A stretch of 64,000 bases of DNA from Escherichia coli (GTDB taxonomy: Bacteria > Pseudomonadota > Gammaproteobacteria > Enterobacterales > Enterobacteriaceae), in the NCBI RefSeq assembly GCF_013122565.1, contig NZ_CP053258.1, one strand, 5' to 3'. The translations under genes were made by a program, and so were the position numbers. Position 1 is the stretch's first letter. The number at the start of each line of letters is the position of its first letter. Under the pieces are notes generated by a model. It made no database searches. It was not told where the DNA came from and saw nothing but the letters and a program-made list of their open reading frames with translations. Of the stretch, positions 13,506-43,479 are shown piece after piece.

Positions 13506-14561
13506 ATGGAAATAAGCTTTACCCGCGTGGCACTGCTGGCTGCCGCGCTCTTCTTTGTTGGTTGCGATCAAAAACCACAACCCGCCAAAACCCACGCTAC
13601 TGAAGTTACCGTTCTTGAAGGCAAAACTATGGGTACCTTCTGGCGTGCCAGCATCCCGGGCATTGACGCCAAACGCAGCGCCGAACTTAAAGAAAAGATT
13701 CAGACCCAGCTGGACGCCGACGATCAGCTGCTTTCGACCTATAAAAAAGATTCCGCGCTGATGCGCTTTAACGACTCGCAAAGTTTGTCGCCGTGGCCGG
13801 TAAGTGAAGCGATGGCCGATATCGTCACCACCTCGCTGCGCATTGGCGCAAGGACCGATGGTGCGATGGATATAACCGTCGGGCCGCTGGTGAATCTGTG
13901 GGGCTTTGGCCCGGAACAACAGCCGGTTCAAATTCCGAGCCAGGAACAGATCGATGCGATGAAAGCCAAAACTGGTTTACAGCACCTGACGGTCATTAAT
14001 CAGTCGCATCAGCAATATCTGCAAAAAGACCTACCGGATTTATATGTCGATCTCTCCACCGTCGGTGAAGGTTATGCGGCGGATCACCTGGCACGCTTGA
14101 TGGAGCAGGAAGGAATTTCACGTTATCTGGTGTCAGTTGGTGGTGCTCTGGATAGCCGTGGTATGAACGGTGAAGGCCAGCCGTGGCGGGTAGCGATTCA
14201 AAAACCAACCGATAAAGAAAACGCGGTTCAGGCTGTGGTGGATATCAACGGTCATGGGATTAGCACCTCTGGCAGCTACCGTAACTATTACGAACTGGAC
14301 GGCAAACGTCTTTCCCATGTTATCGATCCGCAAACCGGGCGTCCCATCGAACACAATCTGGTATCCGTGACGGTGATTGCTCCGACGGCGCTGGAAGCCG
14401 ATGCCTGGGATACTGGCTTGATGGTACTCGGGCCGGAGAAAGCCAAAGAGGTTGTTCGCCGGGAAGGGCTGGCGGTTTATATGATCACCAAAGAAGGTGA
14501 TAGCTTTAAAACCTGGATGTCACCACAGTTTAAAAGCTTCCTGGTCAGCGAAAAAAATTAA
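13506..14561 (+). CDS. apbE: FAD:protein FMN transferase ApbE (lipoprotein), 351 aa
   Basis: MEISFTRVALLAAALFFVGC lipobox; 351 aa; conserved position next to ompC. Confidence 0.93.
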   Translation: MEISFTRVALLAAALFFVGCDQKPQPAKTHATEVTVLEGKTMGTFWRASIPGIDAKRSAELKEKIQTQLDADDQLLSTYKKDSALMRFNDSQSLSPWPVSEAMADIVTTSLRIGARTDGAMDITVGPLVNLWGFGPEQQPVQIPSQEQIDAMKAKTGLQHLTVINQSHQQYLQKDLPDLYVDLSTVGEGYAADHLARLMEQEGISRYLVSVGGALDSRGMNGEGQPWRVAIQKPTDKENAVQAVVDINGHGISTSGSYRNYYELDGKRLSHVIDPQTGRPIEHNLVSVTVIAPTALEADAWDTGLMVLGPEKAKEVVRREGLAVYMITKEGDSFKTWMSPQFKSFLVSEKN

Positions 14562-14634
14562 TGCGCAAGATTGTTGGTTTTTGCGTGATGGTGACCGGGC
14601 AGACTAAAGGCTATCCTTAACCAGGGAGCTGATT

Positions 14635-15699
14635 ATGAAAAACGCCACATGCTTAACTGACGATCAACGCTGGCAATCTGTCTTAGCCCGCGACCCGAAT
14701 GCCGACGGCGAATTCGTTTTCGCCGTGCGCACCACGGGTATCTTTTGCCGTCCGTCTTGCCGCGCCAGACATGCCTTGCGGGAAAACGTCTCCTTCTACG
14801 CAAATGCCAGCGAGGCACTCGCCGCTGGCTTTCGCCCCTGCAAACGTTGTCAGCCAGACAAAGCCAATCCCCGGCAACATCGCCTTGATAAAATTACCCA
14901 CGCCTGCCGACTTCTGGAACAGGAAACGCATGTAACGCTGGAAACCTTAGCCGACCAGGTGGCGATGAGCCCGTTCCATCTGCATCGGTTGTTTAAAGCG
15001 ACTACCGGAATGACGCCTAAAGCCTGGCAACAGGCCTGGCGCGCTCGCCGTTTGCGCGAATCGCTGGCGAAAGGGGAGAGCGTGACGACGTCTATTCTTA
15101 ACGCCGGATTCCCCGACATCAGCAGTTACTACCGCAAAGCTGACGAAACGCTGGGCATGACGGCTAAACAATTCCGTCACGGTGGCGAAAATCTGGCGGT
15201 GCGTTACGCGCTGGCTGATTGTGAGCTGGGTCGTTGCCTGGTGGCAGAAAGCGAGCGGGGGATTTGCGCGATATTGCTGGGCGATGATGACGCGACATTA
15301 ATCAGCGAGTTGCAGCAGATGTTTCCCGCTGCCGACAGCGCGCCTGCCGATCTGACGTTTCAGCAACATGTGCGTGACGTGATCGCCAGCCTCAATCAAC
15401 GCGATACGCCGCTGACGTTACCGCTGGACATTCGCGGCACTGCTTTTCAGCAACAAGTCTGGCAGGCACTGCGCACGATACCTTGCGGTGAAACCGTCAG
15501 TTATCAGCAACTGGCGAACGCCATCGGCAAACCGAAAGCGGTACGGGCCGTTGCCAGCGCCTGTGCCGCCAACAAGCTGGCTATCGTAATACCCTGTCAT
15601 CGAGTGGTCCGTGGTGATGGCACTCTTTCTGGTTACCGCTGGGGCGTGTCGCGTAAAGCACAACTGCTGCGCCGCGAAGCTGAAAATGAGGAGAGGTAA
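14635..15699 (+). CDS. ada: Ada methylphosphotriester/O6-methylguanine DNA methyltransferase and transcriptional regulator, 354 aa
   Basis: N-terminal Zn Cys cluster (CRPSCRAR...CKRC), AraC HTH, C-terminal PCHRV active site. Confidence 0.96.
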   Translation: MKNATCLTDDQRWQSVLARDPNADGEFVFAVRTTGIFCRPSCRARHALRENVSFYANASEALAAGFRPCKRCQPDKANPRQHRLDKITHACRLLEQETHVTLETLADQVAMSPFHLHRLFKATTGMTPKAWQQAWRARRLRESLAKGESVTTSILNAGFPDISSYYRKADETLGMTAKQFRHGGENLAVRYALADCELGRCLVAESERGICAILLGDDDATLISELQQMFPAADSAPADLTFQQHVRDVIASLNQRDTPLTLPLDIRGTAFQQQVWQALRTIPCGETVSYQQLANAIGKPKAVRAVASACAANKLAIVIPCHRVVRGDGTLSGYRWGVSRKAQLLRREAENEER

Positions 15700-18273: not shown

Positions 18274-19932
<1,659 letters not shown>

Positions 19933-19934
19933 TG

Positions 19935-20300
19935 ATGTGCCACATCCGGCATGGTATGCCGGATGTGGCGTATGCTGATAAGACGCGCCAGCGTCGCATC
20001 AGGCAACCGGCTTGGGTGTTAGATGTCGGATGCGGCGTAACCGACTTATTCGACCTACGGGGTGGAGCACTTCACAGCGGTGTAGGCCTGATAAGACGCG
20101 TCAGCGTCGCATCAGGCAACCGGCTCGGACGTTGGATGTCGGATGCGGCGTAACCGCCTTATCCGACCTACGGGGTGGAGCACTTCACAGCGGTGTAGGC
20201 CTGATAACACGCGTCAGCGTCGCATCAGGCAACCGGCTCGGGCGTTAGATGTCGGATGCGGCGTGACCGCTTTATCCAACCTACGGGGTGCCGCACTTCA
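19935..20300. repeat. tandem array (about 3 copies, 113-bp period) of a REP-containing unit (BIME-like)
   Basis: ataagacgcg[c/t]cagcgtcgcatcaggcaaccgg recurs at 19978, 20091 and 20204 (period 113 bp); palindromic ggatgtcggatgcggcgtaaccg units. Confidence 0.9.
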
Positions 20301-21055: not shown

Positions 21056-21090
21056 TTGATCCTGCTACAGGTTTTACCCCGATCGGGGTA
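21056..21090 (+). promoter_or_regulatory. napF promoter: FNR-like half-site region (ttgatcctgctaca) and perfect NarP/NarL 7-2-7 palindrome taccccgatcggggta (21075-21090)
   Basis: 16-bp perfect palindrome read directly; centres ~20 bp apart, consistent with the described napF FNR(-64.5)/NarP(-44.5) arrangement. Confidence 0.75.
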
Positions 21091-21203: not shown

Positions 21204-21698
21204 GTGAAGATTGATGCATCCCGTCGGGGCATACTCACTGGTCGCTGGCGCAAAGCCAGTAACGGTATCCGTCCGCCCTGGTCCGGTGATGAATCTCATT
21301 TTCTGACCCATTGCACCCGCTGCGACGCCTGTATTAATGCTTGTGAAAACAACATTCTGCAACGCGGCGCGGGTGGCTATCCGAGCGTTAATTTCAAAAA
21401 TAACGAGTGCAGCTTCTGTTACGCCTGCGCGCAGGCTTGCCCCGAATCGCTATTTTCTCCGCGCCACACCAGGGCCTGGGATTTGCAGTTCACCATTGGG
21501 GACGCGTGCCTGGCGTATCAGTCAGTTGAATGCCGCCGCTGTCAGGATAGCTGTGAGCCAATGGCAATTATCTTTCGCCCGACGCTCTCCGGGATCTACC
21601 AGCCGCAACTTAATAGCCAACTTTGCAACGGATGTGGAGCATGTGCAGCCAGCTGTCCGGTATCAGCCATAACTGCGGAGTATCTCCATGCACACTAA
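21204..21698 (+). CDS. napF: ferredoxin-type protein NapF, 164 aa
   Basis: multiple CxxCxxCxxxCP clusters; first gene of nap operon. Confidence 0.95.
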   Translation: MKIDASRRGILTGRWRKASNGIRPPWSGDESHFLTHCTRCDACINACENNILQRGAGGYPSVNFKNNECSFCYACAQACPESLFSPRHTRAWDLQFTIGDACLAYQSVECRRCQDSCEPMAIIFRPTLSGIYQPQLNSQLCNGCGACAASCPVSAITAEYLHAH

Positions 21699-21951
21699 CT
21701 GGCAAGTTTGCAGCCTGGTCGTGCAGGCCAAAAGCGAACGAATTTCAGACATCAGCACCCAACTGAACGCCTTTCCCGGCTGTGAAGTTGCTGTCAGCGA
21801 CGCGCCAAGCGGTCAGTTGATTGTGGTGGTGGAAGCAGAAGACAGCGAAACGCTGATCCAAACCATTGAGTCAGTACGCAACGTAGAGGGCGTGCTGGCG
21901 GTGTCGCTGGTTTATCACCAGCAGGAAGAGCAAGGTGAGGAAACACCATGA
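21688..21951 (+). CDS. napD: NapA chaperone NapD, 87 aa
   Basis: 87-aa ORF overlapping napF and napA. Confidence 0.93.
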
Positions 21952-24434
21952 AACTCAGTCGTCGTAGCTTTATGAAAGCTAACGCCGTTGCGGCCGCTGC
22001 GGCGGCTGCCGGTCTCAGCGTGCCGGGCGTTGCCCGTGCCGTTGTTGGTCAGCAGGAAGCCATTAAATGGGATAAAGCGCCGTGCCGTTTCTGCGGTACT
22101 GGTTGCGGCGTTCTGGTCGGAACGCAGCAGGGGCGTGTGGTGGCCTGTCAGGGCGACCCGGATGCACCGGTTAACCGTGGCCTGAACTGCATTAAGGGCT
22201 ATTTCCTGCCCAAAATCATGTACGGTAAAGACCGTTTGACGCAGCCGCTGCTGCGTATGAAAAACGGTAAATATGACAAAGAGGGCGAATTTACCCCAAT
22301 CACCTGGGATCAAGCCTTCGATGTGATGGAAGAGAAATTCAAAACCGCCCTGAAAGAAAAAGGGCCGGAATCGATCGGTATGTTCGGTTCTGGTCAGTGG
22401 ACTATCTGGGAAGGTTATGCCGCGTCCAAGCTGTTCAAAGCGGGCTTCCGTTCGAACAACATCGACCCGAACGCGCGTCACTGTATGGCGTCGGCAGTAG
22501 TTGGCTTTATGCGTACCTTTGGTATGGATGAGCCGATGGGCTGCTATGACGACATCGAGCAGGCTGACGCGTTTGTGCTGTGGGGCGCAAACATGGCGGA
22601 GATGCACCCGATCCTCTGGTCGCGCATCACTAACCGTCGTCTTTCTAACCAGAACGTCACCGTGGCGGTGCTTTCTACCTACCAGCATCGTAGCTTCGAA
22701 CTGGCGGATAACGGCATCATCTTTACGCCACAGTCTGACCTGGTGATCCTGAACTACATCGCTAACTATATCATTCAAAACAATGCGATAAATCAGGACT
22801 TCTTCAGCAAACACGTTAACCTGCGTAAAGGTGCGACGGACATCGGCTACGGTTTACGTCCGACCCATCCGCTGGAAAAAGCAGCGAAGAATCCGGGTTC
22901 TGACGCCTCCGAACCGATGAGCTTTGAAGATTACAAAGCCTTCGTTGCTGAGTATACGCTGGAAAAAACCGCTGAAATGACCGGCGTGCCGAAAGACCAG
23001 TTAGAACAACTGGCGCAGCTGTACGCCGATCCGAACAAGAAAGTCATCTCCTACTGGACGATGGGCTTCAACCAGCACACGCGCGGCGTGTGGGCCAACA
23101 ACCTGGTCTACAACCTGCACCTGCTGACCGGCAAAATTTCCCAGCCGGGTTGCGGTCCGTTCTCCCTGACCGGGCAGCCTTCCGCGTGTGGTACTGCGCG
23201 TGAAGTGGGCACTTTTGCTCACCGTCTGCCTGCGGATATGGTGGTTACCAACGAAAAACACCGTGATATTTGCGAGAAGAAGTGGAATATCCCGAGCGGC
23301 ACCATTCCGGCGAAAATCGGTCTGCACGCGGTGGCACAAGACCGTGCGCTGAAAGACGGCAAACTGAATGTTTACTGGACCATGTGTACCAATAACATGC
23401 AGGCCGGACCGAACATTAATGAAGAGCGTATGCCGGGCTGGCGCGATCCGCGCAACTTTATCATCGTTTCCGATCCGTATCCGACAGTCAGTGCGCTGGC
23501 CGCCGACTTGATCCTGCCGACCGCAATGTGGGTAGAAAAAGAGGGTGCTTACGGTAACGCCGAACGCCGTACTCAGTTCTGGCGTCAGCAGGTACAGGCA
23601 CCGGGCGAAGCGAAATCGGATCTCTGGCAGTTAGTCCAGTTCTCCCGCCGCTTCAAAACCGAAGAAGTATGGCCGGAAGAGCTGCTGGCTAAGAAACCGG
23701 AACTGCGTGGCAAAACGCTGTACGAAGTTCTGTATGCCACCCCCGAAGTGAGCAAATTCCCGGTATCCGAACTGGCGGAAGATCAGCTGAACGATGAATC
23801 CCGCGAGCTGGGCTTCTATCTGCAAAAAGGGCTATTCGAAGAGTACGCATGGTTTGGTCGCGGTCACGGTCACGATCTGGCACCGTTCGATGACTACCAC
23901 AAAGCGCGCGGTCTGCGCTGGCCGGTGGTGAACGGTAAAGAAACGCAGTGGCGTTACAGCGAAGGTAACGACCCGTACGTGAAAGCGGGTGAAGGCTACA
24001 AGTTCTACGGTAAACCGGATGGCAAAGCGGTGATTTTCGCGCTGCCGTTCGAACCGGCGGCGGAAGCACCGGATGAAGAGTACGATCTGTGGCTCTCTAC
24101 CGGACGCGTTCTGGAGCACTGGCACACCGGCAGTATGACTCGCCGTGTGCCGGAACTGCACCGCGCCTTCCCGGAAGCGGTCCTGTTTATTCACCCGCTG
24201 GATGCGAAAGCGCGCGATCTACGCCGTGGCGACAAAGTGAAAGTGGTTTCTCGCCGTGGTGAAGTGATCTCGATTGTCGAAACGCGCGGTCGTAACCGTC
24301 CGCCGCAGGGCCTGGTGTACATGCCGTTCTTCGACGCCGCACAGCTGGTTAACAAACTGACGCTGGATGCGACCGATCCGCTCTCGAAAGAGACGGATTT
24401 CAAGAAGTGCGCGGTCAAACTGGAGAAGGTGTAA
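21948..24434 (+). CDS. napA: periplasmic nitrate reductase catalytic subunit NapA, 828 aa
   Basis: Tat signal SRRSFMK, N-terminal 4Fe-4S Cys motif CRFCGTGCG, molybdopterin oxidoreductase length. Confidence 0.97.
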
Positions 24435-24440
24435 GCCATT

Positions 24441-25136
24441 ATGTCCCGGTCAGCGAAACCTCAAAATGGTCGCCGCCGCTTTCTGCGCGATGTTGTTCGC
24501 ACAGCAGGCGGGCTGGCTGCCGTGGGTGTGGCGCTGGGGTTACAACAGCAAACCGCACGCGCATCTGGCGTGCGGTTGCGCCCGCCCGGAGCCATAAACG
24601 AGAACGCCTTTGCCAGTGCCTGTGTGCGTTGCGGTCAGTGTGTTCAGGCTTGCCCTTACGACACCTTAAAACTGGCGACGCTGGCTTCTGGCCTGTCGGC
24701 GGGCACGCCATATTTTGTCGCACGGGATATTCCTTGCGAAATGTGTGAGGACATTCCGTGCGCCAAAGTGTGCCCGAGCGGTGCGCTGGATCGTGAGATT
24801 GAATCGATCGACGACGCGCGGATGGGGCTGGCGGTACTGGTGGACCAGGAAAACTGTCTCAACTTTCAGGGGCTGCGCTGCGATGTTTGTTATCGCGAAT
24901 GCCCGAAAATTGATGAGGCCATCACCCTGGAGCTGGAGCGCAACACGCGTACCGGTAAGCACGCCCGCTTTCTGCCGACGGTTCACAGCGACGCCTGTAC
25001 TGGTTGCGGTAAGTGCGAAAAAGTGTGCGTGCTGGAACAACCGGCAATCAAGGTGTTACCGCTGTCACTGGCGAAAGGGGAGTTAGGTCACCATTACCGC
25101 TTCGGCTGGCTGGAGGGGAACAATGGCAAATCGTAA
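24441..25136 (+). CDS. napG: ferredoxin-type protein NapG, 231 aa
   Basis: Tat-like signal (RRRFLRD), four Cys clusters. Confidence 0.95.
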
Positions 25137-26432: not shown

Positions 26433-26441
26433 GAGGTTATT

Positions 26442-32294: not shown

Positions 32295-33343
32295 GGTTTT
32301 TATTGGGCGTGCTGATGCTGATGATCTCCGGCTCAGCGCTGGCGACCATCGACGTGTTGCAGTTTAAAGATGAAGCACAGGAACAACAGTTCCGTCAGCT
32401 CACTGAAGAACTGCGCTGCCCGAAATGCCAGAACAACAGCATTGCCGATTCCAACTCGATGATTGCCACCGACCTGCGCCAGAAAGTGTATGAACTGATG
32501 CAGGAAGGTAAAAGTAAAAAAGAGATTGTCGATTATATGGTGGCGCGTTACGGCAACTTCGTCACTTACGATCCGCCGTTAACGCCGCTGACCGTATTGC
32601 TGTGGGTGCTGCCAGTAGTGGCTATTGGCATTGGCGGTTGGGTCATATACGCCCGCTCGCGGCGTCGGGTACGCGTGGTGCCGGAAGCGTTTCCTGAACA
32701 AAGCGTGCTGGAAGGTAAGCGTGCCGGATATGTTGTTTATCTGCCGGGTATTGTGGTGGCGTTAATTGTGGCTGGCGTCAGCTACTACCAGACTGGCAAT
32801 TATCAGCAGGTGAAAATCTGGCAGCAGGCCACGGCACAGGCTCCGGCGTTGCTGGACAGGGCGCTGGATCCGAAAGCTGATCCGCTCAACGAAGAAGAGA
32901 TGTCGCGCCTTGCGCTGGGGATGCGTACTCAACTGCAAAAAAATCCGGGAGATATAGACGGCTGGATTATGTTGGGCCGCGTTGGCATGGCGCTGGGTAA
33001 CGCCAGTATTGCCACCGATGCATACGCTACTGCATATCGCCTCGATCCGAAGAACAGTGATGCTGCACTGGGTTACGCTGAAGCGTTGACACGTTCATCT
33101 GATCCCAACGACAACCGCCTGGGGGGTGAACTACTACGCCAGTTGGTGAGAACGGACCATAGCAATATCCGTGTGTTAAGCATGTATGCGTTTAATGCCT
33201 TTGAGCAGCAGCGATTTGGCGAAGCCGTTGCCGCGTGGGAGATGATGTTGAAACTCTTACCTGCCAACGATACTCGCCGTGCTGTGATTGAACGTAGTAT
33301 CGCGCAGGCGATGCAACATTTGTCGCCGCAGGAGAGTAAATAA
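32291..33343 (+). CDS. ccmH: cytochrome c heme lyase subunit CcmH, 350 aa
   Basis: N-terminal LRCPKC motif, C-terminal TPR-like region. Confidence 0.94.
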   Translation: MRFLLGVLMLMISGSALATIDVLQFKDEAQEQQFRQLTEELRCPKCQNNSIADSNSMIATDLRQKVYELMQEGKSKKEIVDYMVARYGNFVTYDPPLTPLTVLLWVLPVVAIGIGGWVIYARSRRRVRVVPEAFPEQSVLEGKRAGYVVYLPGIVVALIVAGVSYYQTGNYQQVKIWQQATAQAPALLDRALDPKADPLNEEEMSRLALGMRTQLQKNPGDIDGWIMLGRVGMALGNASIATDAYATAYRLDPKNSDAALGYAEALTRSSDPNDNRLGGELLRQLVRTDHSNIRVLSMYAFNAFEQQRFGEAVAAWEMMLKLLPANDTRRAVIERSIAQAMQHLSPQESK

Positions 33344-33380
33344 AAAGTGGCCCGATGGTGATTCCATCGGGCTATTTTTA
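33344..33380. terminator. bidirectional intrinsic terminator between ccmH and narP (gcccgatgg...ccatcgggc flanked by A-run/T-run)
   Basis: hairpin with flanking aaaaa / ttttt. Confidence 0.8.
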
Positions 33381-34025
33381 TTGTGCCCCGCGTTGTTGCA
33401 GGAACAGAATGGTGGCCGCCACGCGTGAGCGGACATTGAGTTTACGCAGCAGATTGCGAATATGTACTTTTACTGTCTGCTCGGAAATATTCAACACCGA
33501 GGCAATTTGTTTATTTGACAGCCCCTGTGCCAGCTCGTGCAGAACATCCAGCTCGCGCTCCGTCAGCACGCTGAAGGGATCTTCTTCCGCGCCAAACATT
33601 TCACGTTCACGCAAGTACTGATTGACGCGTTCGCTAAAGACTTTGCTGCCTTTCGCTCCGGCACGAATCGCTTCCAGCAACACTTCCGGGTCGCTGTCTT
33701 TCAACAGATAACCGTCTGCGCCTGCGTCTATCAGCGCAAAGACATCGCTGGAGGCATCTGATACGGTCAGGATAATAATTTGCGCGGTAACGCCATCCCT
33801 GCGCAAGGCATTGAGGGTATCCAGGCCACTCATACCTTTCATATTGAGATCCAGCAAGATCACGTCGATATCCAGTCTATTCGCCAGATCGATAGCACTC
33901 GCGCCGTCGCCTGCTTCGGCGACCACTTCAAAGCCAGGATCAAGCTCCAGTAACTGACGAACACCGCGTCGCATAAGTGGATGATCATCCACAATCATCA
34001 CCTGAAAAGGCGTTGCTTCAGGCAT
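33378..34025 (-). CDS. narP: nitrate/nitrite response regulator NarP, 215 aa
   Basis: MPEATPFQVMIVDDHPLMRRG receiver domain, LuxR HTH C-terminus; start trimmed from track ORF. Confidence 0.95.
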   Translation of the reverse strand: MPEATPFQVMIVDDHPLMRRGVRQLLELDPGFEVVAEAGDGASAIDLANRLDIDVILLDLNMKGMSGLDTLNALRRDGVTAQIIILTVSDASSDVFALIDAGADGYLLKDSDPEVLLEAIRAGAKGSKVFSERVNQYLREREMFGAEEDPFSVLTERELDVLHELAQGLSNKQIASVLNISEQTVKVHIRNLLRKLNVRSRVAATILFLQQRGAQ

Positions 34026-34344: not shown

Positions 34345-36936
34345 ATGCATCAATCTGGTTCTGTTTCTCTTTGTCGTTCCGCAATATCTGTTCTGGTGGC
34401 TACAGCGTTATATTCACCCATAGCATTGGCATCAACAGTTGAGTATGGTGAGACAGTTGATGGTGTTGTCCTGGAAAAAGATATCCAGCTGGTTTATGGG
34501 ACCGCCAATAATACGAAAATCAATCCTGGCGGAGAACAGCATATTAAAGAATTTGGTATAAGTAGTAATACTGAAATTAACGGCGGGTATCAGTACATTG
34601 AAATGAATGGCACCGCAGAATACTCCGTATTAAATGATGGTTATCAAATTGTTCAAATGGGTGGCGCGGCAAACCAGACTACCCTCAATAATGGTGTGCT
34701 ACAGGTTTATGGCGCAGCGAATGATCCCACGATTAAAGGCGGGCGCTTAATCGTTGAAAAAGATGGGATTACCGTCCTTGCCGCTATCGAAAAGGGAGGA
34801 TTACTGGAGGTTAAAGAGGGGGGGTTAGCGATTGCGGTAGATCAGAAAGCCGGCGGTGCTATTAAAACAACCACGCGGGCCATGGAGGTATTCGGAACAA
34901 ACCGTCTCGGTCAGTTCGATATCAAGAATGGTATTGCTAACAATATGCTGTTGGAAAACGGCGGAAGTTTGCGAGTTGAAGAAAATGACTTCGCTTATAA
35001 TACTACTGTAGATAGTGGCGGCTTACTGGAGGTTATGGATGGCGGGACTGCAACTGGCGTTGATAAAAAAGCAGGCGGAAAATTAATTGTCTCAACGAAT
35101 GCGCTGGAAGTGAGTGGTACAAACAGTAAAGGCCAATTTAGTATAAAAGATGGTGTGTCAAAAAATTATGAACTGGACGATGGTTCCGGGCTCATTGTTA
35201 TGGAGGACACGCAGGCCATTGATACTATCCTTGATGAGCATGCCACTATGCAATCGCTGGGAAAGGATACTGGTACGAGAGTGCAGGCAAATGCGGTATA
35301 TGATCTGGGTCGATCAGATCAGAATGGAAGTATCACGTATTCCTCTAAAGCCATCTCTGAAAATATGGTTATCAACAATGGCCGCGCTAATGTCTGGGCA
35401 GGCACAATGGTTAACGTTTCAGTCAGAGGGAATGATGGCATTCTTGAGGTCATGAAGCCGCAAATAAATTATGCACCCGCTATGTTGGTGGGTAGTGTCG
35501 TGGTTTCTGAGGGCGCTTCTTTAAGAACGCATGGTGCCGTGGATACCAGCAAAGCGGATGTTTCGCTCGAAAATAGCTCATGGACCATCATTGCCGATAT
35601 CACTACGACGAACCAAAACACCCGCCTCAATTTAGCCAACCTTGCGATGTCTGGCGCAAATGTGATTATGATGGATGAGCCAGTGACTCGTTCATCTGTG
35701 ACGGCAAGTGCGGAAAATTTCACTACGTTGACCACCAATACCCTGTCGGGAAACGGCAATTTTTATATGCGTACCGATATGGCTAATCATCAGAGCGATC
35801 AGCTCAACGTCACCGGACAGGCAACAGGTGATTTCAAAATATTCGTGACGGACACCGGTGCCAGCCCGGCAGCAGGAGATAGCCTTACACTGGTAACAAC
35901 GGGCGGCGGTGATGCTGCATTTACGTTGGGCAATGCCGGAGGCGTTGTTGATATCGGTACGTATGAATATACCTTGCTGGATAATGGCAATCATAGCTGG
36001 AGTCTGGCAGAGAATCGCGCGCAAATTACCCCTTCAACCACTGATGTGCTAAATATGGCGGCAGCACAACCGCTGGTATTTGATGCAGAACTGGACACCG
36101 TGCGTGAGCGTCTTGGTAGCGTAAAAGGCGTTAGTTACGATACGGCGATGTGGAGTTCGGCAATTAACACCCGCAACAACGTGACCACTGATGCGGGCGC
36201 TGGTTTTGAGCAAACATTGACGGGCCTGACGCTCGGTATCGATAGCCGTTTCTCCCGTGAAGAAAGCAGTACAATTCGCGGCTTGTTCTTTGGTTACTCT
36301 CATTCTGATATTGGTTTTGATCGCGGCGGCAAAGGCAATGTCGATAGCTATACCCTGGGTGCTTATGCCGGTTGGGAGCATCAGAACGGTGCCTATGTTG
36401 ATGGGGTGGTGAAAGTTGACCGTTTTGCCAACACCATCCATGGCAAGATGAGTAATGGGGCAACAGCGTTTGGCGATTACAATAGTAACGGCGCGGGTGC
36501 TCATGTTGAGAGCGGGTTCCGTTGGGTTGACGGATTGTGGAGTGTTAGACCCTATCTGGCCTTTACCGGCTTTACCACAGATGGTCAGGACTACACGTTA
36601 TCAAACGGCATGCGCGCGGACGTGGGAAATACCCGGATATTACGCGCTGAAGCGGGAACGGCGGTAAGCTATCACATGGACCTGCAAAACGGTACGACGC
36701 TGGAACCCTGGCTGAAAGCCGCCGTGCGTCAGGAATACGCCGATTCTAACCAGGTGAAAGTTAATGACGATGGCAAATTTAATAATGATGTGGCTGGAAC
36801 CAGTGGCGTTTATCAGGCTGGGATAAGGTCATCGTTTACCCCGACGTTAAGCGGTCATTTGTCAGTCAGCTATGGCAATGGCGCAGGGGTAGAATCACCG
36901 TGGAATACTCAGGCGGGTGTGGTCTGGTCGTTCTGA
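34345..36936 (+). CDS. yejO: autotransporter adhesin-like protein YejO, intact 863 aa
   Basis: N-terminal signal peptide, repetitive passenger, C-terminal beta-barrel ending VVWSF; adjacent to tRNA-Pro as yejO is. Confidence 0.85.
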   Translation: MHQSGSVSLCRSAISVLVATALYSPIALASTVEYGETVDGVVLEKDIQLVYGTANNTKINPGGEQHIKEFGISSNTEINGGYQYIEMNGTAEYSVLNDGYQIVQMGGAANQTTLNNGVLQVYGAANDPTIKGGRLIVEKDGITVLAAIEKGGLLEVKEGGLAIAVDQKAGGAIKTTTRAMEVFGTNRLGQFDIKNGIANNMLLENGGSLRVEENDFAYNTTVDSGGLLEVMDGGTATGVDKKAGGKLIVSTNALEVSGTNSKGQFSIKDGVSKNYELDDGSGLIVMEDTQAIDTILDEHATMQSLGKDTGTRVQANAVYDLGRSDQNGSITYSSKAISENMVINNGRANVWAGTMVNVSVRGNDGILEVMKPQINYAPAMLVGSVVVSEGASLRTHGAVDTSKADVSLENSSWTIIADITTTNQNTRLNLANLAMSGANVIMMDEPVTRSSVTASAENFTTLTTNTLSGNGNFYMRTDMANHQSDQLNVTGQATGDFKIFVTDTGASPAAGDSLTLVTTGGGDAAFTLGNAGGVVDIGTYEYTLLDNGNHSWSLAENRAQITPSTTDVLNMAAAQPLVFDAELDTVRERLGSVKGVSYDTAMWSSAINTRNNVTTDAGAGFEQTLTGLTLGIDSRFSREESSTIRGLFFGYSHSDIGFDRGGKGNVDSYTLGAYAGWEHQNGAYVDGVVKVDRFANTIHGKMSNGATAFGDYNSNGAGAHVESGFRWVDGLWSVRPYLAFTGFTTDGQDYTLSNGMRADVGNTRILRAEAGTAVSYHMDLQNGTTLEPWLKAAVRQEYADSNQVKVNDDGKFNNDVAGTSGVYQAGIRSSFTPTLSGHLSVSYGNGAGVESPWNTQAGVVWSF

Positions 36937-36995
36937 TAACAGAAAATAAACAGGCTGTGATGTGTCGCGGTCTGTTTATCGAATTAAATGCAGAT

Positions 36996-37030
36996 ATAAA
37001 AAAACCAACCGTAAAGGTTGGTTTTTTTTG
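36996..37030. terminator. intrinsic terminator (ccaaccgtaaaggttgg + T8) shared by yejO and the convergent tRNA
   Basis: hairpin followed by tttttttt, preceded by A-run. Confidence 0.85.
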
Positions 37031-37037
37031 GGATTTT

Positions 37038-37114
37038 TGGTCGGCACGAGAGGATTTGAACCTCCGACCCCCGACACCCCATGACGGTGCGCTACCAGGC
37101 TGCGCTACGTGCCG
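37038..37114 (-). tRNA. proL: tRNA-Pro (GGG anticodon), 77 nt including CCA
   Basis: reverse complement reads CGGCACGTAGCGCAGCCTGGTAGCGCACCGTCATGGGGTGTCGGGGGTCGGAGGTTCAAATCCTCTCGTGCCGACCA. Confidence 0.93.
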
Positions 37115-37188
37115 ACTCGTGGCTGTTAATACTACCGTTTTCCACACCGATTGCAAGTAAGATATTTTGCTAACTGATTTATAATTAA

Positions 37189-38949
37189 TCAGTTAGCGAT
37201 AAAACGCTTCTCGTCTGTCAGTACTTGCAATAACAAACTTAACTGTGGTTTTTCATCTTTCACTCTTTCACCACGTAAGTTGTAAGTACGGTATTTACCG
37301 TTATTGTTCAGCACCAGCGTCTTTTTCGGGGTGGTAATTGCCAGCGTATCGTTATCCGCGGCGGTAACCCAGTAATGACGGCGTTGAGGGTTGAACAAAT
37401 CCTGACCTTGCGAATATTCGCTGGCAGGTGTGCTGACATGTAGCAGGCGTTGCATCAGCGTCGTCATCAGATCGGTATGATCAGTCAGAGCATTAATACG
37501 CTGCGCCGGCGTGCCTGGCCAGTGAATCACTAATGGTACCTGCAGATGACCGTGGGACCAGTCAAAGGTTTCTTCCTCTTCGCTCAGCGGAATACCCCGA
37601 CCGGCAGTGATAATCACCACCGTATTGTCCAGTTTGCCAGAATCACGCAGTGCATTGAGCACGCGGTTGATCTGGTCATCGACATTGCCTGCCGCCCGGC
37701 TATATTTCCGTGAAAATGCCTGCTGATTGCTGTCGTCAATGTTAGTGCCATTGAAAGAGACCCACGAGAACCAGCGGTTATCTTCTTGTGCGTAGCGGCC
37801 CAGCCAGTTGATCCACTGCGTGGCGGTCTGCTCGTCGGATTGGGTGCGTACGCTCGGCATCGAGAAATCTGACAACAATGCCTGGCGATACAGCGGGCTG
37901 GTAAAGCCATCTGACGAGAATAACCCCAGCTGATAGCCTTGCTGATTAAGCGCAGTAATTAACGCCGCAGGGGTACGGGTCGACAGAATGCCGTCCATAT
38001 AGCTCGGCGAGATGCCATAGAACAGGCCAAAGATGCCGTTGTCTGTAGTGTTGCCGGAGCTCATATGGCGCGTGAACGAAATATTTTGCTCAGCAAAACC
38101 TGCCAGCGCAGGCATCTGCTTCTCGAAGCGTGAGTAGTTCAGGCCATCGACAGTAATCAACAGCACATTCTGCCCAGTGCCCATATCGCGATAGCGCAGT
38201 TCGCTTAACGGATACTGAACGGAAACGGCGTCTGGATTACCTTGCTCAATAAGACGGCGTTGATACTCCTGCGCATCAAGCAGGCCATGCTTCTCAAGAA
38301 AACGTCGCGCCGTCATCGGGTACGAAAGCGGCAGGTTAGCGCGCTGCATGGTGATCGGGCGATAGAAGTTGGCATCGGCCCAGATATACACCACATGCGA
38401 GGCGATAAAGGCGATAAATAAGAATGCGGCCAGCGGGCGCGCGAAGCGTCGACGACGCGTCAGGCTGCGCAGCTTTTGCCAGCTCCACGTCGCAAACACC
38501 AGTTCAAGCAATAAAATAACCGGCACGCTGATGAACATCAGCTGCCAGTCGCGCGCCATCTCATTTTCGTCTGGGTTGATAACCAGTTGCCAGACGATGG
38601 GATTAAGATGGAGATGGAAACGAGTAAAGACTTCGCTATCGATCAGTAATAGCGTCATTCCCGCCGTTGCCAGAATGACGGACAAAAACCTCATCAGCCT
38701 CTGGGAGCCGACGATAAAGGTCAGCGGGAAGAGGATTAGCAAGTAGGTGGCAAACACCAGGAAGCTGAAATGGCCGATAATGCTTACGTAGGAATAAATG
38801 CGACCAGCAAGCGTGGTCGGCCAGTCGGCGATAAACAGGTAACGGCTGCCAATGACGAGCGAAAGCAGAATATTGAACAGTGCAAACCAGTGCCCCCAAC
38901 TGACCATCTGGGAGACTTTTTCACGGTAGCGCTGACGATGAGTTACCAT
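37189..38949 (-). CDS. yejM: inner membrane protein YejM (PbgA/LapC), sulfatase-like periplasmic domain, 586 aa
   Basis: 586-aa ORF, N-terminal TM helices, position after proL. Confidence 0.93.
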   Translation of the reverse strand: MVTHRQRYREKVSQMVSWGHWFALFNILLSLVIGSRYLFIADWPTTLAGRIYSYVSIIGHFSFLVFATYLLILFPLTFIVGSQRLMRFLSVILATAGMTLLLIDSEVFTRFHLHLNPIVWQLVINPDENEMARDWQLMFISVPVILLLELVFATWSWQKLRSLTRRRRFARPLAAFLFIAFIASHVVYIWADANFYRPITMQRANLPLSYPMTARRFLEKHGLLDAQEYQRRLIEQGNPDAVSVQYPLSELRYRDMGTGQNVLLITVDGLNYSRFEKQMPALAGFAEQNISFTRHMSSGNTTDNGIFGLFYGISPSYMDGILSTRTPAALITALNQQGYQLGLFSSDGFTSPLYRQALLSDFSMPSVRTQSDEQTATQWINWLGRYAQEDNRWFSWVSFNGTNIDDSNQQAFSRKYSRAAGNVDDQINRVLNALRDSGKLDNTVVIITAGRGIPLSEEEETFDWSHGHLQVPLVIHWPGTPAQRINALTDHTDLMTTLMQRLLHVSTPASEYSQGQDLFNPQRRHYWVTAADNDTLAITTPKKTLVLNNNGKYRTYNLRGERVKDEKPQLSLLLQVLTDEKRFIAN

Positions 38950-38968
38950 AACCTGTTATCTGTTTCCC

Positions 38969-39196
38969 TTAGTGCGCTTTGTCTTCGTTGATAGAGGACT
39001 GTAAGGCGCGGGCAAAAGAGTTGGCAATTGCCTGGCGTTGGGCCGGGGCAATGCTAGTGTTGATAAGGTTAGTGACCATGTTGCCTAACACCATCAGGGA
39101 AAGGTCGGTCGGAGCCTTATGTTTTTCCAGTACGTTGAGCAGCTCTGCGAGCAATTGTTCAACTTGTTCATCACTGTAGCGGGAAATTTGTGGCAT
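38969..39196 (-). CDS. yejL: UPF0352 protein YejL, 75 aa
   Basis: 75-aa [19 protein letters not shown] upstream of yejM. Confidence 0.9.
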
Positions 39197-39377
39197 AAAT
39201 CGAAATCAGTTAGTTGATGAAAGGGCAACATATTACCGTAGCAACGGTTTTTTTTCTGCTTTTTTATGCGTTAAATCATTCTCGTTACGCTGCCTTCTGT
39301 AAAATGACCGCCATCTTTTATTGCGTCGCTTAACCGGCGGTGGTTGAATACCGCCCGGTCTTAAAGGAGAGTTTATC

Positions 39378-40385
39378 ATGAGTCTGGATATCAACCAGAT
39401 TGCTCTGCACCAGCTTATCAAGCGTGATGAGCAGAACCTTGAGCTGGTGTTGCGCGATTCATTGCTGGAACCGACAGAAACCGTCGTTGAGATGGTGGCA
39501 GAACTGCATCGGGTCTATAGCGCCAAAAATAAAGCTTACGGCTTGTTTAGCGAAGAGAGTGAACTGGCGCAGACGCTGCGCTTACAGCGTCAGGGCGAAG
39601 AGGACTTTCTGGCATTTAGCCGCGCGGCAACCGGTCGCCTGCGTGACGAATTAGCGAAATATCCTTTTGCTGACGGTGGATTCGTGCTGTTTTGCCACTA
39701 CCGTTATCTGGCGGTGGAGTATCTGCTGGTGGCAGTCCTGAGCAACCTGAGCAGTATGCGCGTTAACGAAAATCTCGACATCAACCCAACCCATTATCTT
39801 GATATCAATCATGCGGATATTGTTGCGCGTATCGATTTAACCGAATGGGAAACCAATCCAGAGTCGACCCGCTATCTCACTTTCCTGAAAGGGCGAGTAG
39901 GGCGCAAAGTGGCGGATTTCTTTATGGATTTCCTCGGGGCCAGCGAAGGGTTAAACGCGAAAGCGCAAAACCGTGGGCTGTTGCAAGCGGTTGATGATTT
40001 CACTGCCGAAGCACAACTGGATAAAGCAGAGCGACAGAACGTGCGCCAGCAGGTTTATAGCTACTGTAATGAGCAGCTGCAGGCAGGCGAAGAGATTGAA
40101 CTGGAGTCGCTGTCGAAAGAGCTGGCAGGCGTCAGCGAAGTGAGCTTCACGGAGTTTGCGGCTGAAAAAGGCTACGAACTGGAAGAGAGCTTCCCGGCAG
40201 ACCGTAGCACACTGCGTCAGTTGACGAAGTTTGCCGGTAGCGGCGGTGGCTTGACTATTAACTTTGATGCGATGCTGTTAGGTGAACGCATCTTCTGGGA
40301 TCCGGCGACCGATACCCTGACCATTAAAGGCACGCCGCCGAATTTGCGCGACCAATTGCAGCGCCGGACGTCTGGTGGGAACTAA
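39378..40385 (+). CDS. yejK: nucleoid-associated protein YejK (NdpA), 335 aa
   Basis: 335-aa [22 protein letters not shown]. Confidence 0.94.
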
Positions 40386-40765
40386 ATCTCCAACGCGAAT
40401 GTTTCTTTTCGGAGAAACAGTTGCGGGATAATCACAATTCTTGTCAATCAGTTAGTGAGATGACTTGCTGATTGACCTTTCATTCGAAAATGTTTTCTCT
40501 GTTATTATACTTAGTGTTACTGAAAATATTATTCTCTTATCCCCTTTATTCGATAATAAATCGGTCTGGTCACTATTTCCGCCGTTTTTTGTGAGCTGTA
40601 ACACTGGAAAAATCATTCTGTTTAATTATATTGAGTTTACTTGGCGTTATATGTTGTTATTTGCTTTGACTATATAAAATGCAAATGTATTCTTAATGTC
40701 AATATTATTGTCGTTATGTTTGACTCATTATATTAATCGTATGAATAGTTTTAAGGATTCACCGC

Positions 40766-41338
40766 ATGGAGCAAGAAAATCCTGAAGATAGAAAGTGTTG
40801 TCGACCGAAAAAAACGTTCTCTTTAACCAGAAAATTACTGGTATGTTTTATCTTTACCCTCATTGTATTCAGTGGTTGTTTATTTGTCGTTATGAACACG
40901 GTCATTCATAACACCAGCACTGACAGCTTTTGCCTGGGTTGTCATGAAATGAAAGACAACATCCTTACCGAGAGTTTCAAAAAATCCATTCATGGCAGTA
41001 ATCGTACTGGCGTGAAAGTCGCTTGTGCCGATTGCCATATTCCTGATGAATTTGTCCCTAAGATGATCAGAAAAGCCCACGCCGTTAAAGAGGTTTGGGG
41101 GCATATGACAGGCGTAATTGATACGGCCGATAAATTCGATGCACATCGTGGCGAAATGGCAAAAGCGGAATGGGCAAGAATGAAAGCAAACAATTCGCAG
41201 GAATGCAGAGACTGCCACGATATTTCTAAATTACAGAAAAAATTTATGGCGCCGTTCCATGAGGCTTCTCTTAAAGAAGGGAAAACATGCATTGATTGTC
41301 ATGCCGGCATTGCACATAAATTACCAGCAGTTCATTAG
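40766..41338 (+). CDS. NapC/NirT/CymA-family membrane-anchored tetraheme cytochrome c (putative quinol dehydrogenase), 190 aa; NapC paralog
   Basis: N-terminal TM helix (LLVCFIFTLIVFSGCLFVV), four CxxCH (CLGCH, CADCH, CRDCH, CIDCH); shares blocks VPKMIRK, NNSQECR-CH, TCIDCH-GIAHKLP with the napC in this window. Confidence 0.85.
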   Translation: MEQENPEDRKCCRPKKTFSLTRKLLVCFIFTLIVFSGCLFVVMNTVIHNTSTDSFCLGCHEMKDNILTESFKKSIHGSNRTGVKVACADCHIPDEFVPKMIRKAHAVKEVWGHMTGVIDTADKFDAHRGEMAKAEWARMKANNSQECRDCHDISKLQKKFMAPFHEASLKEGKTCIDCHAGIAHKLPAVH

Positions 41339-41431
41339 TCATTAATACATGAATGTCATGTCTGTCTGGTTTCAAATAAAAACAAGAAGGGTTTCATGTT
41401 GATTTAAGTTTTTATGTAAAAGGACCATGTT

Positions 41432-43072
41432 ATGAGGAAACTAAAAAGGGGATTCTTATTGGCTGGGGTATTAACGGCACTTTCTCTAAGCGCTTATGCT
41501 GACAGAAATATGAATAAGATCCCGCATATCAATCTGTCGAATCCATCCGTCGAACCAGTTAGTGAGAGAATAATCCAAACAGATATTGTTGTTATTGGCG
41601 GTGGGCTTTCTGGCATGTCCGCAGGGTTGACTGCAGTACAGGGCGGAGCCAAAGTTGTTATTTTTGAAAAACTACCAAGCCTTGGAGGGGCAGGCGTTTA
41701 TCCTGAAGGCAGTTTAGGCATTGGCACCCTTATGCAAAAAAAAGAGGGGAAAGGTGCCACGCTGAATCAAGCCTTTGGTAAGGCGATCGATTTCCATCAC
41801 TGGCGAGCCAATGCTAGTGCATTGCACGCATTAATGAAAAACTCAGGCGAAACCATTGATTGGGTTGCCAGTAATGGCGTTGAGTTTACGACCTTAAAAA
41901 CCACCATTTATCCTCAGTCAGATTCATTATGGACCTGGCATATGTATAAGCATAATGGTGCATCTGTTACTAAAAGCTTTTACAAGAAGATCCTTGATGG
42001 AGGTGGGCAAATCTACACCGAAACTCCTGTTAAGAAGATTCTTCGCGACAAACAAAGCGGTGATGTCGTTGGCGTCGAAGCGGTTAATAGCGTAACAGGG
42101 GAAAAAATCATTGCCTATGGTAAGGGTGTGATTGTGGCGACCGGTGGTTTTGCCAACAACCGTGACATGATTGAAAAATACATCACCGATGTGAATCAGA
42201 AAAACATGGTGCCGGTCAAACTACGTGGCCCCCTGATTGATGGACGCGAAGGCGATGGTATCAAAATGGGGCAAGACATTGGCGCTGATACTGCCGGGAT
42301 GCAAACCATTGCTGGCAATAGCCCATATGTCGATCAAGACCCTCCTATCCGTCAGTTTAATGGCGCGGATTACCAAAAACAGGCCAGAACGTCATTAAGC
42401 CAGCCATTCCTGTGGATTAACCGACAAGGCGAGCGTTTCTTTGATGAGTCACTCGGTTCCAGTTTTACCCTCGTTTATAACGCTATCACCATGAATGGCG
42501 GAGTCATGTATTCTGTCTGGGATGATGCAATGCGCCAGAAGATGGTTAACGAAGGGCCGGTTACACCGTTTAACGCCATCGTGTTGCCTGGGCAGCCGAT
42601 GAAGGCGCTGGATCAGGCGATCGAAATCGGCATGAAAGAAGGGTGGTTATTTAAAGGTGAAACGTTGGACGATCTGGCAAAACAGATCAATGTTCCTGCA
42701 GACAATCTGAAAGCGACGATTGCGAAAGTAAACAAGTATACGGATGAAGGTTTCGATCCTGACTGGGGGCGCAAGAAAGAGCATCTGTTTAAATTTCAGG
42801 ATAAAGGACCGTATTACGCCGTGAAAGGTATTCGGGCTTATTTCCTGACGCTGGGTGGTTTGAAAATGAACAGCGATCTGCAGGTCTACGATACCAATGA
42901 GAAGATTATCCCAGGTCTGTATGTTGTCGGGCAGGATATGGGCGGTCTGTATGACAGCTCCTATGATTTGGTACTTGAAGGATCGGCTTCTGGCTTTGCG
43001 TTGACGTCGGGACGTATGGCAGCGAAACATATTATAAGCACCAGAGTGCAGGCACAGGGAGGAGGCAAATGA
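41432..43072 (+). CDS. exported FAD-dependent flavoprotein of the fumarate-reductase/succinate-dehydrogenase flavoprotein (FAD_binding_2) type, 546 aa; substrate unknown
   Basis: N-terminal signal peptide MRKLKRGFLLAGVLTALSLSAYA; dinucleotide fold DIVVIGGGLSGMSAGLTA...EKLPSLGGAG; C-terminal GLYVVGQDMGG; no CxxCH. Confidence 0.8.
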   Translation: MRKLKRGFLLAGVLTALSLSAYADRNMNKIPHINLSNPSVEPVSERIIQTDIVVIGGGLSGMSAGLTAVQGGAKVVIFEKLPSLGGAGVYPEGSLGIGTLMQKKEGKGATLNQAFGKAIDFHHWRANASALHALMKNSGETIDWVASNGVEFTTLKTTIYPQSDSLWTWHMYKHNGASVTKSFYKKILDGGGQIYTETPVKKILRDKQSGDVVGVEAVNSVTGEKIIAYGKGVIVATGGFANNRDMIEKYITDVNQKNMVPVKLRGPLIDGREGDGIKMGQDIGADTAGMQTIAGNSPYVDQDPPIRQFNGADYQKQARTSLSQPFLWINRQGERFFDESLGSSFTLVYNAITMNGGVMYSVWDDAMRQKMVNEGPVTPFNAIVLPGQPMKALDQAIEIGMKEGWLFKGETLDDLAKQINVPADNLKATIAKVNKYTDEGFDPDWGRKKEHLFKFQDKGPYYAVKGIRAYFLTLGGLKMNSDLQVYDTNEKIIPGLYVVGQDMGGLYDSSYDLVLEGSASGFALTSGRMAAKHIISTRVQAQGGGK

Positions 43073-43479
43073 GTAAGCTATTGAAGAACATTGTCACAAT
43101 CATTCTTGCTGGCGTAATGTGCACCGTTATCGGTATGGTTTCTGCCAGTGCACAAGAGATTGTCGGCATGAAAATGCACAAGACCATTGGTCTGGAATGT
43201 AATAACTGCCATGTTGATGATGTTAAAGCCAACAAGAATATGACGCCAACGTGCGTTAGCTGCCATGCGCCTGGTGAGCGTTATTATCATGGTAAGAAGG
43301 ATTCAGAAGGTAACTCAGTGTTAAAAGAGTATCCGGAGTCGGGTAAAACACGAGTTGCGTCTTTCCATGACTCTCATGGCGGGGAAATTCGCTGTACGGT
43401 ATGCCATACGTCACATGAGAAGGAACCACAGCCACTCTATTGCAACAACTGCCATCAGTTTGATGTGAAGATTAAGTAG
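43069..43479 (+). CDS. small periplasmic tetraheme cytochrome c, 136 aa
   Basis: signal peptide, four CxxCH (CNNCH, CVSCH, CTVCH, CNNCH) in ~110 mature residues; ATGA overlap with upstream flavoprotein gene. Confidence 0.85.
   Translation: MSKLLKNIVTIILAGVMCTVIGMVSASAQEIVGMKMHKTIGLECNNCHVDDVKANKNMTPTCVSCHAPGERYYHGKKDSEGNSVLKEYPESGKTRVASFHDSHGGEIRCTVCHTSHEKEPQPLYCNNCHQFDVKIK

Follow-up and report, generated by a model that had tools for sequence, protein, structure and literature searches.

The stretch of DNA analysed here (the window) covers 64,000 nucleotides of Escherichia coli contig NZ_CP053258.1 (assembly GCF_013122565.1) and belongs to an Escherichia chromosome whose genes follow the usual E. 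coli order. Between yejK and rplY it carries an island (40386-43532) of exactly three open reading frames, which encode a NapC/NirT-family tetrahaem cytochrome, a flavin adenine dinucleotide (FAD) flavoprotein and a small tetrahaem cytochrome c3. A preliminary description of the window, made from the sequence alone, had grouped this cytochrome/flavoprotein module with apbE, the periplasmic nitrate reductase (nap) genes and the complete cytochrome c maturation (ccm) genes into one periplasmic redox neighbourhood (13506-43479), and had considered co-regulation or co-inheritance of the island with that locus plausible. All of the genes it listed are present where it placed them. Our analysis indicates that the nearness of the island to nap-ccm quite probably reflects inherited gene order around an autonomous module that was imported alone, and not a functional cluster.

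The first island gene (40766-41338, plus strand) encodes a cytochrome with a hydrophobic N-terminal membrane anchor and four CxxCH motifs that matches PF03264 with 193 bits against a cut-off of 24 (E=4e-57). This protein is 47% identical to the NapC encoded in the same window and scores below the cut-offs of TIGR02161 (207 vs 311) and of the NapC family NF007906 (199 vs 349). By these scores it appears to belong to the NapC/NirT superfamily without being NapC itself, and it is predicted to be the module's own quinol dehydrogenase. The second gene (41432-43072, plus strand) encodes a periplasmic FAD_binding_2 flavoprotein (PF00890, E=1e-43) with a Sec-type signal peptide (AYA/D), the predicted catalytic subunit. 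The start of the third gene (43069-43479, plus strand) overlaps the flavoprotein stop codon (ATGA). Its product is a small periplasmic tetrahaem cytochrome c3 (PF14537) with four CxxCH motifs, and among solved structures it best matches residues 13-91 of Shewanella Ifc3 and Fcc3, which form their N-terminal tetrahaem domains. A motif count over the island confirmed the eight CxxCH haem sites noted in the preliminary description: each cytochrome has four, and the flavoprotein has no such motif. The G+C content of the island is 43% (0.40-0.48 at third codon positions, GC3) vs 51% for the window; the homologous loci elsewhere in Enterobacteriaceae seem to have a similar placement, even after long residence.

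Comparison with related genomes revealed that the island and its flanks have different histories. Relative to an E13S3-like genome (L018), the island is 97.2-99.0% identical and the flanks 92.2-94.1%, whereas relative to Escherichia sp. MOD1-EC7003 the island is 89-91% identical and the flanks 95-98%. We then located the breakpoints by a three-way comparison of informative sites, with E. coli (L007) and the E13S3-like genome as references. The left breakpoint lies at 40352-40379, in the last codons of yejK, where the sequence switches from E. coli-type to E13S3-type, and the right one at 43539-43600, at the 3' end of rplY, where it switches back. The informative sites and the identity discordance together delimit a recombination patch of ~3.2 kb and E13S3-like origin (40353-43599). 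To the left of the patch, window positions 9401-40400 are 97.1-99.6% identical to E. coli D8 in every 1-kb step, except at the hypervariable ompC (93%). The island/flank discordance and the sharp breakpoints therefore indicate that the island was imported alone, without nap-ccm. The island junctions fall at gene ends, and we found no marks of a mobile element: there is no integrase or transposase gene among the three open reading frames, no direct repeat at the junctions and no close plasmid copy. A mobile genomic island was rejected on these grounds, and the sequence pattern identifies homologous recombination of the flanks as the route by which the island moved. Less probably, transfer ran in reverse, from an E. 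coli lineage to the E13S3-like one, in which case the module would still have moved without nap-ccm. Co-inheritance with nap-ccm, as contemplated in the preliminary description, is thus refuted for this strain, in which the island is an E13S3-like patch and nap-ccm is E. coli-type. Because the patch arrived by homologous recombination, its site was set by the gene order of the donor and not by selection for nearness to nap-ccm.

We next examined how the module is distributed. The island was found in none of 5,426 complete E. coli genomes, and searches with the three island genes in the distant mode of blastn returned no match in E. coli genomes. At the yejK/rplY junction, 5,425 of these genomes have a 138-bp spacer that contains a repetitive extragenic palindromic (REP) element and a terminator. 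The exact flavoprotein is on record for one E. coli (WP_250880417.1), and its 90% identity cluster consists mainly of E. albertii and other Escherichia. The E. albertii entries in this cluster include fragments of 79-312 residues, some of them on large contigs of up to a 4.9-Mb chromosome, which suggests decay of the gene in part of the E. albertii lineages. At the same yejK/rplY site, the module is present in E. albertii, in Escherichia sp. MOD1-EC7003 and the E13S3-like genome, which stand for two cryptic Escherichia clades, and in Citrobacter sp. Cu233. The Citrobacter locus (L010 12170-13909) has, in the gap between c3 and rplY, an extra gene for a 579-residue permease/ATPase-type ATP-binding cassette (ABC) transporter that is not in Escherichia. 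Outside this synteny block, Budvicia aquatica carries all three genes at an unrelated locus (flavoprotein 84% identical). Six further contexts, with flavoproteins 61-75% identical, have the flavoprotein and c3 only, next to ribosomal, ATP synthase, transposase, ABC-uptake or regulator genes, and Brenneria corticis has the flavoprotein alone (53% identical), again at an unrelated locus. The pair of flavoprotein and c3 is thus kept in seven further loci. Relatives of the flavoprotein at 56-59% identity occur in Geobacteraceae and Deferribacterales. On plasmids there is no close island copy; all homologues there are below 60% identity, the best listed at about 28%. A scan of GTDB with exact 8-residue words returned three loci and missed Budvicia, so it provides no basis for calling the module absent elsewhere.

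In four of nine contexts of flavoprotein homologues (L002, L011, L013 and L017), genes for uptake of the iron-siderophore or corrinoid type lie nearby, possibly by chance; they include FecCD, Peripla_BP_2, ABC_tran, a TonB receptor and a siderophore-interacting protein. In two contexts a ThiC-like radical S-adenosylmethionine gene adjoins the flavoprotein homologue.

None of the eight contexts outside the synteny block has nap or ccm genes within flanks of up to 10 kb (~10 kb in most, shorter in L012, L016 and L017). Searches with tblastn for NapA, NapC, CcmF and CcmH were negative in the metagenomic and Brenneria loci, and none of the four was found at the Budvicia locus. The preliminary description had itself taken occurrence of the island at unrelated loci in other genomes to refute a tie with the nap-ccm locus; in Budvicia and in other bacteria the module does sit at such loci, with no nap or ccm near.

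Taken together, the comparisons suggest that the 30-kb 'neighbourhood' would consist of three independent things that came to lie side by side through chromosome history. The nap-ccm genes are a well-known E. coli unit and apbE is an unrelated core neighbour. For Escherichia, and for at least one Citrobacter, placement of the module between yejK and rplY would be the ancestral state. The module is missing from mainstream E. coli, and the rare lineage studied here would have regained it through the ~3.2-kb patch from an E13S3-like cryptic Escherichia clade.

Several observations weigh against this reading. The E. coli type at the breakpoints rests on a single reference (L007). The G+C content is low at every carrier, and the ultimate donor of the island would lie outside Enterobacteriaceae. 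Absence of the module from other genera is not established, as the GTDB scan missed Budvicia. In the other contexts, linkage to nap or ccm may be looser than the ~10-kb flank. Degenerate sites can be enough for FNR or NarP to act, and input of the CRP type to the island could overlap the reported catabolite control of napF (cited in PMC12285233 and PMC3688515).

To address regulation, we analysed the sequences bordering the island genes. The features found there predict that the island is its own transcription unit, insulated by the yejK terminator and equipped with its own promoter and a downstream terminator. On the plus strand at 40441-40476, a 9-bp inverted repeat (GTCAATCAG-N18-CTGATTGAC) followed by a T-rich run gives a terminator-like match that is conserved in Escherichia and is probably the yejK terminator. 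The island is closed by a strong G+C-rich hairpin with runs of A and T on its sides (AAAAAGAAAACGGCCCGTAAAGGCCGTTTTCTTTTG, 43503-43538), a predicted bidirectional terminator between the island and rplY. The predicted island promoter (40590-40632, plus strand) has a -10 element, TATATT, at 40627-40632, and its -35 position is overlapped by a palindrome of the CRP/FNR family with a CRP-type GTG-N8-CAC core (TGTGAGCTGTAACACT, 40590-40605, plus strand). This palindrome is centred ~41.5 bp upstream of the start site (near 40639) predicted from the conserved TATATT, a spacing that suggests class II architecture. Escherichia and Citrobacter share the block, as does Budvicia in part, within an intergenic alignment that is otherwise 59% identical. 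CRP-like matches in the window number 19 vs 25.6 expected, so that TGTGAGCTGTAACACT alone is not above chance; we retained it despite this count because it is conserved. Control of the island by a factor of the CRP/FNR family is likely. An Rfam scan of the island and its ~125-nt leader gave no credible riboswitch.

For comparison we used the control region of napF (21056-21090, plus strand), which is activated by FNR together with NarP (PMC3688515). The scans that recover the napF sites, an FNR half-site box (TTGATCCTGCTACA, 21056-21069) and a NarP 7-2-7 site (TACCCCGATCGGGGTA, 21075-21090), were applied to the 380 bp upstream of the island genes (40386-40765). This region contains no FNR site with two or fewer mismatches and no convincing NarP 7-2-7 match, the best having four mismatches. 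The co-regulation with nap-ccm envisaged in the preliminary description thus has no sequence support, and with a separate transcription unit and no FNR and 7-2-7 sites of its own the island resembles neither a part of the nap-ccm operon nor a member of the FNR-NarP regulon.

It is possible, although we consider it unlikely, that FNR and/or NarP act on the island without consensus sites, so that it is induced anaerobically together with nap-ccm. Consistent with this, the palindrome upstream of the island is conserved and of the CRP/FNR family, a homologue with 74% identity (L012) has a perfect FNR box (TTGATTTGTATCAA) upstream, a Crp/Fnr-like regulator is transcribed divergently at three homologous loci, and a respiratory reductase would be expected to be expressed anaerobically, as ArdAB is (bioRxiv 10.1101/2024.02.11.579808). 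However, the half-site in Escherichia and Citrobacter is TGTGA, the CRP type, instead of TTGAT, and both the scan results for FNR and NarP and the chance-level count of CRP-like matches argue against a shared circuit. Common anaerobic induction would moreover be parallel regulation and not a consequence of adjacency. The divergent regulators are homologous proteins of ~240 residues opposite the flavoprotein-c3 pair in metagenomic loci (L011 8979-9710, L012 1585-2301 and L015 4480-5199). One of the three has a cNMP_binding match, and the TTGATTTGTATCAA box lies in the intergenic region that regulator and flavoprotein share in L012. Elsewhere in the window, an FNR-like box with one mismatch (TTGATATCGAACAA, 13401-13414) sits in the gap from the ompC stop codon to the start of apbE; it may be due to chance, as the window contains 49 FNR matches with two or fewer mismatches vs 33 expected. 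The FNR chromatin immunoprecipitation peak that PMC3688515 assigns to ompC appears to lie at the opposite end of that gene.

We then considered whether nearness to ccm, nap and narP is itself functional, favouring anaerobic co-expression or joint transfer of a respiratory kit. In its favour, 7-8 kb separate the module from ccmH and narP in five carriers (this window, E. albertii, MOD1-EC7003, the E13S3-like genome and Citrobacter Cu233), wherever the sequence is long enough to show it, a random 3-kb insertion would by our own estimate fall within 10 kb of ccm ~0.4% of the time, and the module would be unable to work without Ccm. But these carriers all lie in one synteny block and therefore count as one ancestral placement, 5,425 E. 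coli genomes have nap-ccm-yej and no module, the eight contexts outside the block have neither nap nor ccm near, and the imported patch excludes nap-ccm. The 7 kb between ccmH and the island are occupied by narP (-), yejO (+), proL (-), yejM (-), yejL (-) and yejK (+), so that genes on both strands, a tRNA gene and terminators intervene. Functional clustering is thus very improbable. The co-location is real, but an excess over chance cannot be demonstrated for one ancestral placement carried on by synteny. Of the redox neighbourhood in the preliminary description, the co-location stands; a functional effect of the neighbourhood is not supported, given a separate transcription unit and an import without nap-ccm.

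We also considered that the module might be a purely vertical relic, one that a deep E. coli lineage has retained from the Escherichia ancestor onwards with no later import. This was our initial reading. The window is at best 98.3-98.9% identical, over stretches of 15-25 kb, to any of the 5,426 complete E. coli genomes, with top matches from river water, baboons, deer and an echidna, and the strain represents a rare lineage without a representative among the complete RefSeq genomes. Flanks of E. coli type that reach right up to the junctions also agree with a relic. Among the other carriers, nucleotide divergence of the island matches or slightly exceeds that of the flanks, and this tracking indicates long vertical residence there. 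What led us to reject a purely vertical history for this strain is the comparison with the E13S3-like genome, to which the island is far closer than the flanks are (97-99% vs 92-94%). The opposite pattern towards MOD1-EC7003 (89-91% vs 95-98%) and the sharp breakpoints complete the signature of an import, and we hold an unbroken vertical descent to be highly unlikely. Import of the module alone by recombination remains the preferred reading.

In E. coli the system I Ccm machinery attaches haem c and is upregulated or expressed only anaerobically (PMC12285233, PMC10937671). Eight CxxCH motifs and Sec-type signal or anchor sequences characterize the island cytochromes as Ccm substrates, and the window holds a complete ccmA-H set. 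The preliminary description's statement that the island haems depend on an anaerobic Ccm system is therefore a sound inference, one that would apply in trans: client status holds for c-type cytochromes encoded anywhere in the genome and is thus independent of adjacency. For ApbE, a Pfam scan found no FMN_bind domain (PF04205) and a motif search no [ST]GA[ST] flavinylation motif in any of the three island proteins, which makes ApbE irrelevant to the island and leaves its grouping with the island in the preliminary description without a flavinylation target. That ApbE covalently flavinylates the island flavoprotein, as in UrdA-type or Klebsiella-type periplasmic reductases, can practically be dismissed: apbE lies in the window and an FMN_bind domain modified by ApbE is found in many extracytosolic FAD_binding_2 reductases (PMC8238504; bioRxiv 10.64898/2026.04.22.720169), but domain and motif are both missing, electrons would enter via haems instead, and apbE belongs to the core of E. 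coli genomes without the island.

The remainder of the window is ordinary E. coli core synteny from apbE through nap-ccm to yejK/rplY. From its start the gene order is yfaS-yfaQ-yfaP, rcsC, rcsB, rcsD, micF, ompC, apbE, ada, alkB, yojI, mqo and eco, followed by napFDAGHBC, ccmABCDEFGH, narP, yejO, proL, yejM, yejL, yejK, the island, rplY, radD, rsuA and bcr. The gene apbE (13506-14561, plus strand), encoding the FAD:protein flavin mononucleotide transferase, matches Pfam ApbE and scores 725 bits against the NF007774 cut-off of 498; it is also annotated in E. coli D8. All seven products of the periplasmic nitrate reductase operon napFDAGHBC (21204-27044, plus strand) exceed their NCBIfam cut-offs. 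Within the system I operon ccmABCDEFGH (27057-33343, plus strand), CcmA, B, C, E, F and G match their families, and ccmD lies at 29115-29324 (plus strand). The sole family match of CcmH is the related NrfF model, below cut-off; the gene is the counterpart of the annotated ccmH in E. coli D8. The nitrate/nitrite response regulator gene narP (33378-34025, minus strand) scores 457 bits against the NF007708 cut-off of 343, in a match that spans residues 11-225 of a longer open reading frame. The spacer between ccm and the island (34345-40385, both strands) contains unrelated core genes, namely the autotransporter gene yejO (+), yejM (-), yejL (-) and yejK (+), with the tRNA-Pro gene proL inside it at 37038-37114 (minus strand). 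Other ordinary E. coli features are three naRNA4/REP-type repeats (Rfam RF02564) at 8001-8191 and 20085-20168, MicF at 11864-11957 and the L25 leader at 43861-43886. The ato operon, which in K-12 sits between yfaP and rcsC, is not present at 4880-5152 between these two genes, an arrangement common to other E. coli (matches with 100% coverage).

To gain insight into what the module may reduce, we compared the flavoprotein with characterized relatives. Its closest solved structures are those of UrdA, a urocanate reductase, and of the Fcc3 flavin domain (E about 1e-45 for Fcc3, family profile). The vinylphenol reductase VprA is its top NCBIfam family over the full length, with a score (312 bits) that is below the VprA equivalog cut-off (NF053717, 600 bits), and is likewise the top family for all 20 members of the flavoprotein family that were tested (best E=1e-108). 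In 2-enoate reductases an Arg/Arg/His triad binds the substrate carboxylate and donates a proton (UrdA R411, R560 and H520; Fcc3 R402, R545 and H504). Sequence alignments of the island flavoprotein to UrdA (6t85) and Fcc3 (1d4c/1d4d) did not recover this triad. In alignments made with the single sequence and with a 20-sequence profile, UrdA R411, H520 and R560 are replaced by S, F, and V or L, and Fcc3 H365, R402, H504 and R545 by N/D, S, L and Y/L. The residues at the triad positions of the island protein (S343, F471/L472 and V/L) are invariant or nearly so across the family. The name 'fumarate reductase' given to homologues (JGI) was rejected, as the residues that bind fumarate are not conserved. 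The protein thus appears to be a VprA-resembling member of an uncharacterised clade that lacks the carboxylate-binding triad, and because the triad is missing, a substrate without a carboxylate is plausible. The flavoprotein and its MOD1-EC7003 copy share 98% amino-acid and 91% nucleotide identity, and the gene is therefore under purifying selection. Tat export was rejected, as neither the island flavoprotein nor any of 11 homologues has an RR in its N-terminus; all have Sec-like signals. With a Sec-type signal and no twin-arginine motif, the protein would acquire its FAD in the periplasm, as Shewanella Fcc3 does.

On the basis of these family assignments, the most likely electron path runs from menaquinol through the NapC/NirT-type cytochrome, c3 and FAD to an organic acceptor. 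The membrane cytochrome would oxidise menaquinol and pass electrons to the small periplasmic c3, from which they would reach the Sec-exported flavoprotein and reduce the acceptor. The likeness of both parts to Fcc3/Ifc3 and the overlap of their genes lead us to regard the flavoprotein/c3 pair as a split flavocytochrome c3, here a secreted FAD_binding_2 flavoprotein beside a small four-haem cytochrome that matches the Fcc3 haem domain. With its own CymA-like feeder, the island would be a self-contained quinol:acceptor reductase that needs Ccm in trans, for haem attachment, and needs neither NapC nor ApbE. We tentatively suggest, as a guess that is more doubtful than the path itself, that the acceptor is an activated alkene without a carboxylate, such as the vinylphenols from plant hydroxycinnamates, which a quinol-linked periplasmic reductase would convert to ethylphenols. 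If so, E. albertii, the cryptic clades and this rare E. coli would gain an electron acceptor for respiration that is not available to mainstream E. coli, the VprA family would have a previously undescribed cytochrome-coupled branch, and homologous recombination from a sister species could restore a lost respiratory capacity to E. coli.

The closeness to nap-ccm itself matters little, other than as a worked example of inherited synteny that mimics a functional cluster. As nap-ccm is already known, the remaining interest lies in the module itself, a respiratory cassette missing from mainstream E. coli. E. albertii and the cryptic clades have kept a complete, apparently intact quinol-to-acceptor chain, which came back into E. 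coli in a minimal recombination patch. The flavoprotein makes this chain a candidate for the use of a new anaerobic electron acceptor by Escherichia of the gut or the environment, and the module may serve as a marker that tells these Escherichia lineages apart.

Among known systems, the Wolinella succinogenes FccABC system has the same three kinds of part. FccC of this organism is of the NapC/NirT type. Like the island, FccABC combines a periplasmic FAD_binding_2 flavoprotein (FccA), a small four-haem cytochrome of ~140 residues (FccB) and a NapC/NirT-family membrane cytochrome; the gene order of the island is C-A-B. FccA and FccB are tabulated in PMC4427408, where FccA carries a Tat signal, RRDLIK (Table 1), unlike the Sec-type signal of the island flavoprotein. 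Split flavocytochromes c are a known type that includes W. succinogenes FccAB, Geobacter sulfurreducens Mrd/Mcc and Shewanella ArdAB (PMC4427408; bioRxiv 10.1101/2024.02.11.579808; bioRxiv 10.64898/2026.04.22.720169). The Shewanella pathway from CymA to Fcc3 or Ifc3 resembles the proposed one, in that the island c3 matches residues 13-91 and the flavoprotein the flavin domain of Fcc3, and fused Fcc3 is Sec-exported (PMC4427408, Table 1), as the island flavoprotein would be. In the Shewanella acrylate reductase ArdAB, as in the island, the small cytochrome gene adjoins the flavoprotein gene (bioRxiv 10.1101/2024.02.11.579808); SO_3056/3058 and SO_3300/3301 are further split flavocytochromes c of this genus that invite comparison. 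Unlike in Shewanella, the carboxylate triad is replaced in the island flavoprotein, and the quinol dehydrogenase gene lies inside the module and not elsewhere. Mrd/Mcc is likewise a two-gene operon of a flavoprotein and a multihaem cytochrome that tends toward transfer as a unit (PMC4427408). It differs from the island in the Tat signal of Mrd, the larger Mcc (231 residues, 4-7 haems), the lack of a NapC/NirT gene and a substrate, methacrylate, that carries a carboxylate.

Lactiplantibacillus plantarum VprA (lp_3125) represents the top family of the island flavoprotein, and it acts on a substrate that lacks a carboxylate, in keeping with the missing triad. VprA has been characterised in L. plantarum only, with a LysR-type regulator and no mention of cytochrome partners (PMC10295242), whereas the island enzyme is predicted to be periplasmic and cytochrome-fed. 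Finally, the E. coli nap-ccm system resembles the island in that both are periplasmic, depend on c-type cytochromes and would draw electrons from quinol, with 47% identity between their NapC-type proteins. The island differs in having no molybdoenzyme and no FNR/NarP sites, and in forming a separate transcription unit 7 kb away; it is an imported patch, set in an E. coli-type backbone to which nap-ccm belongs.

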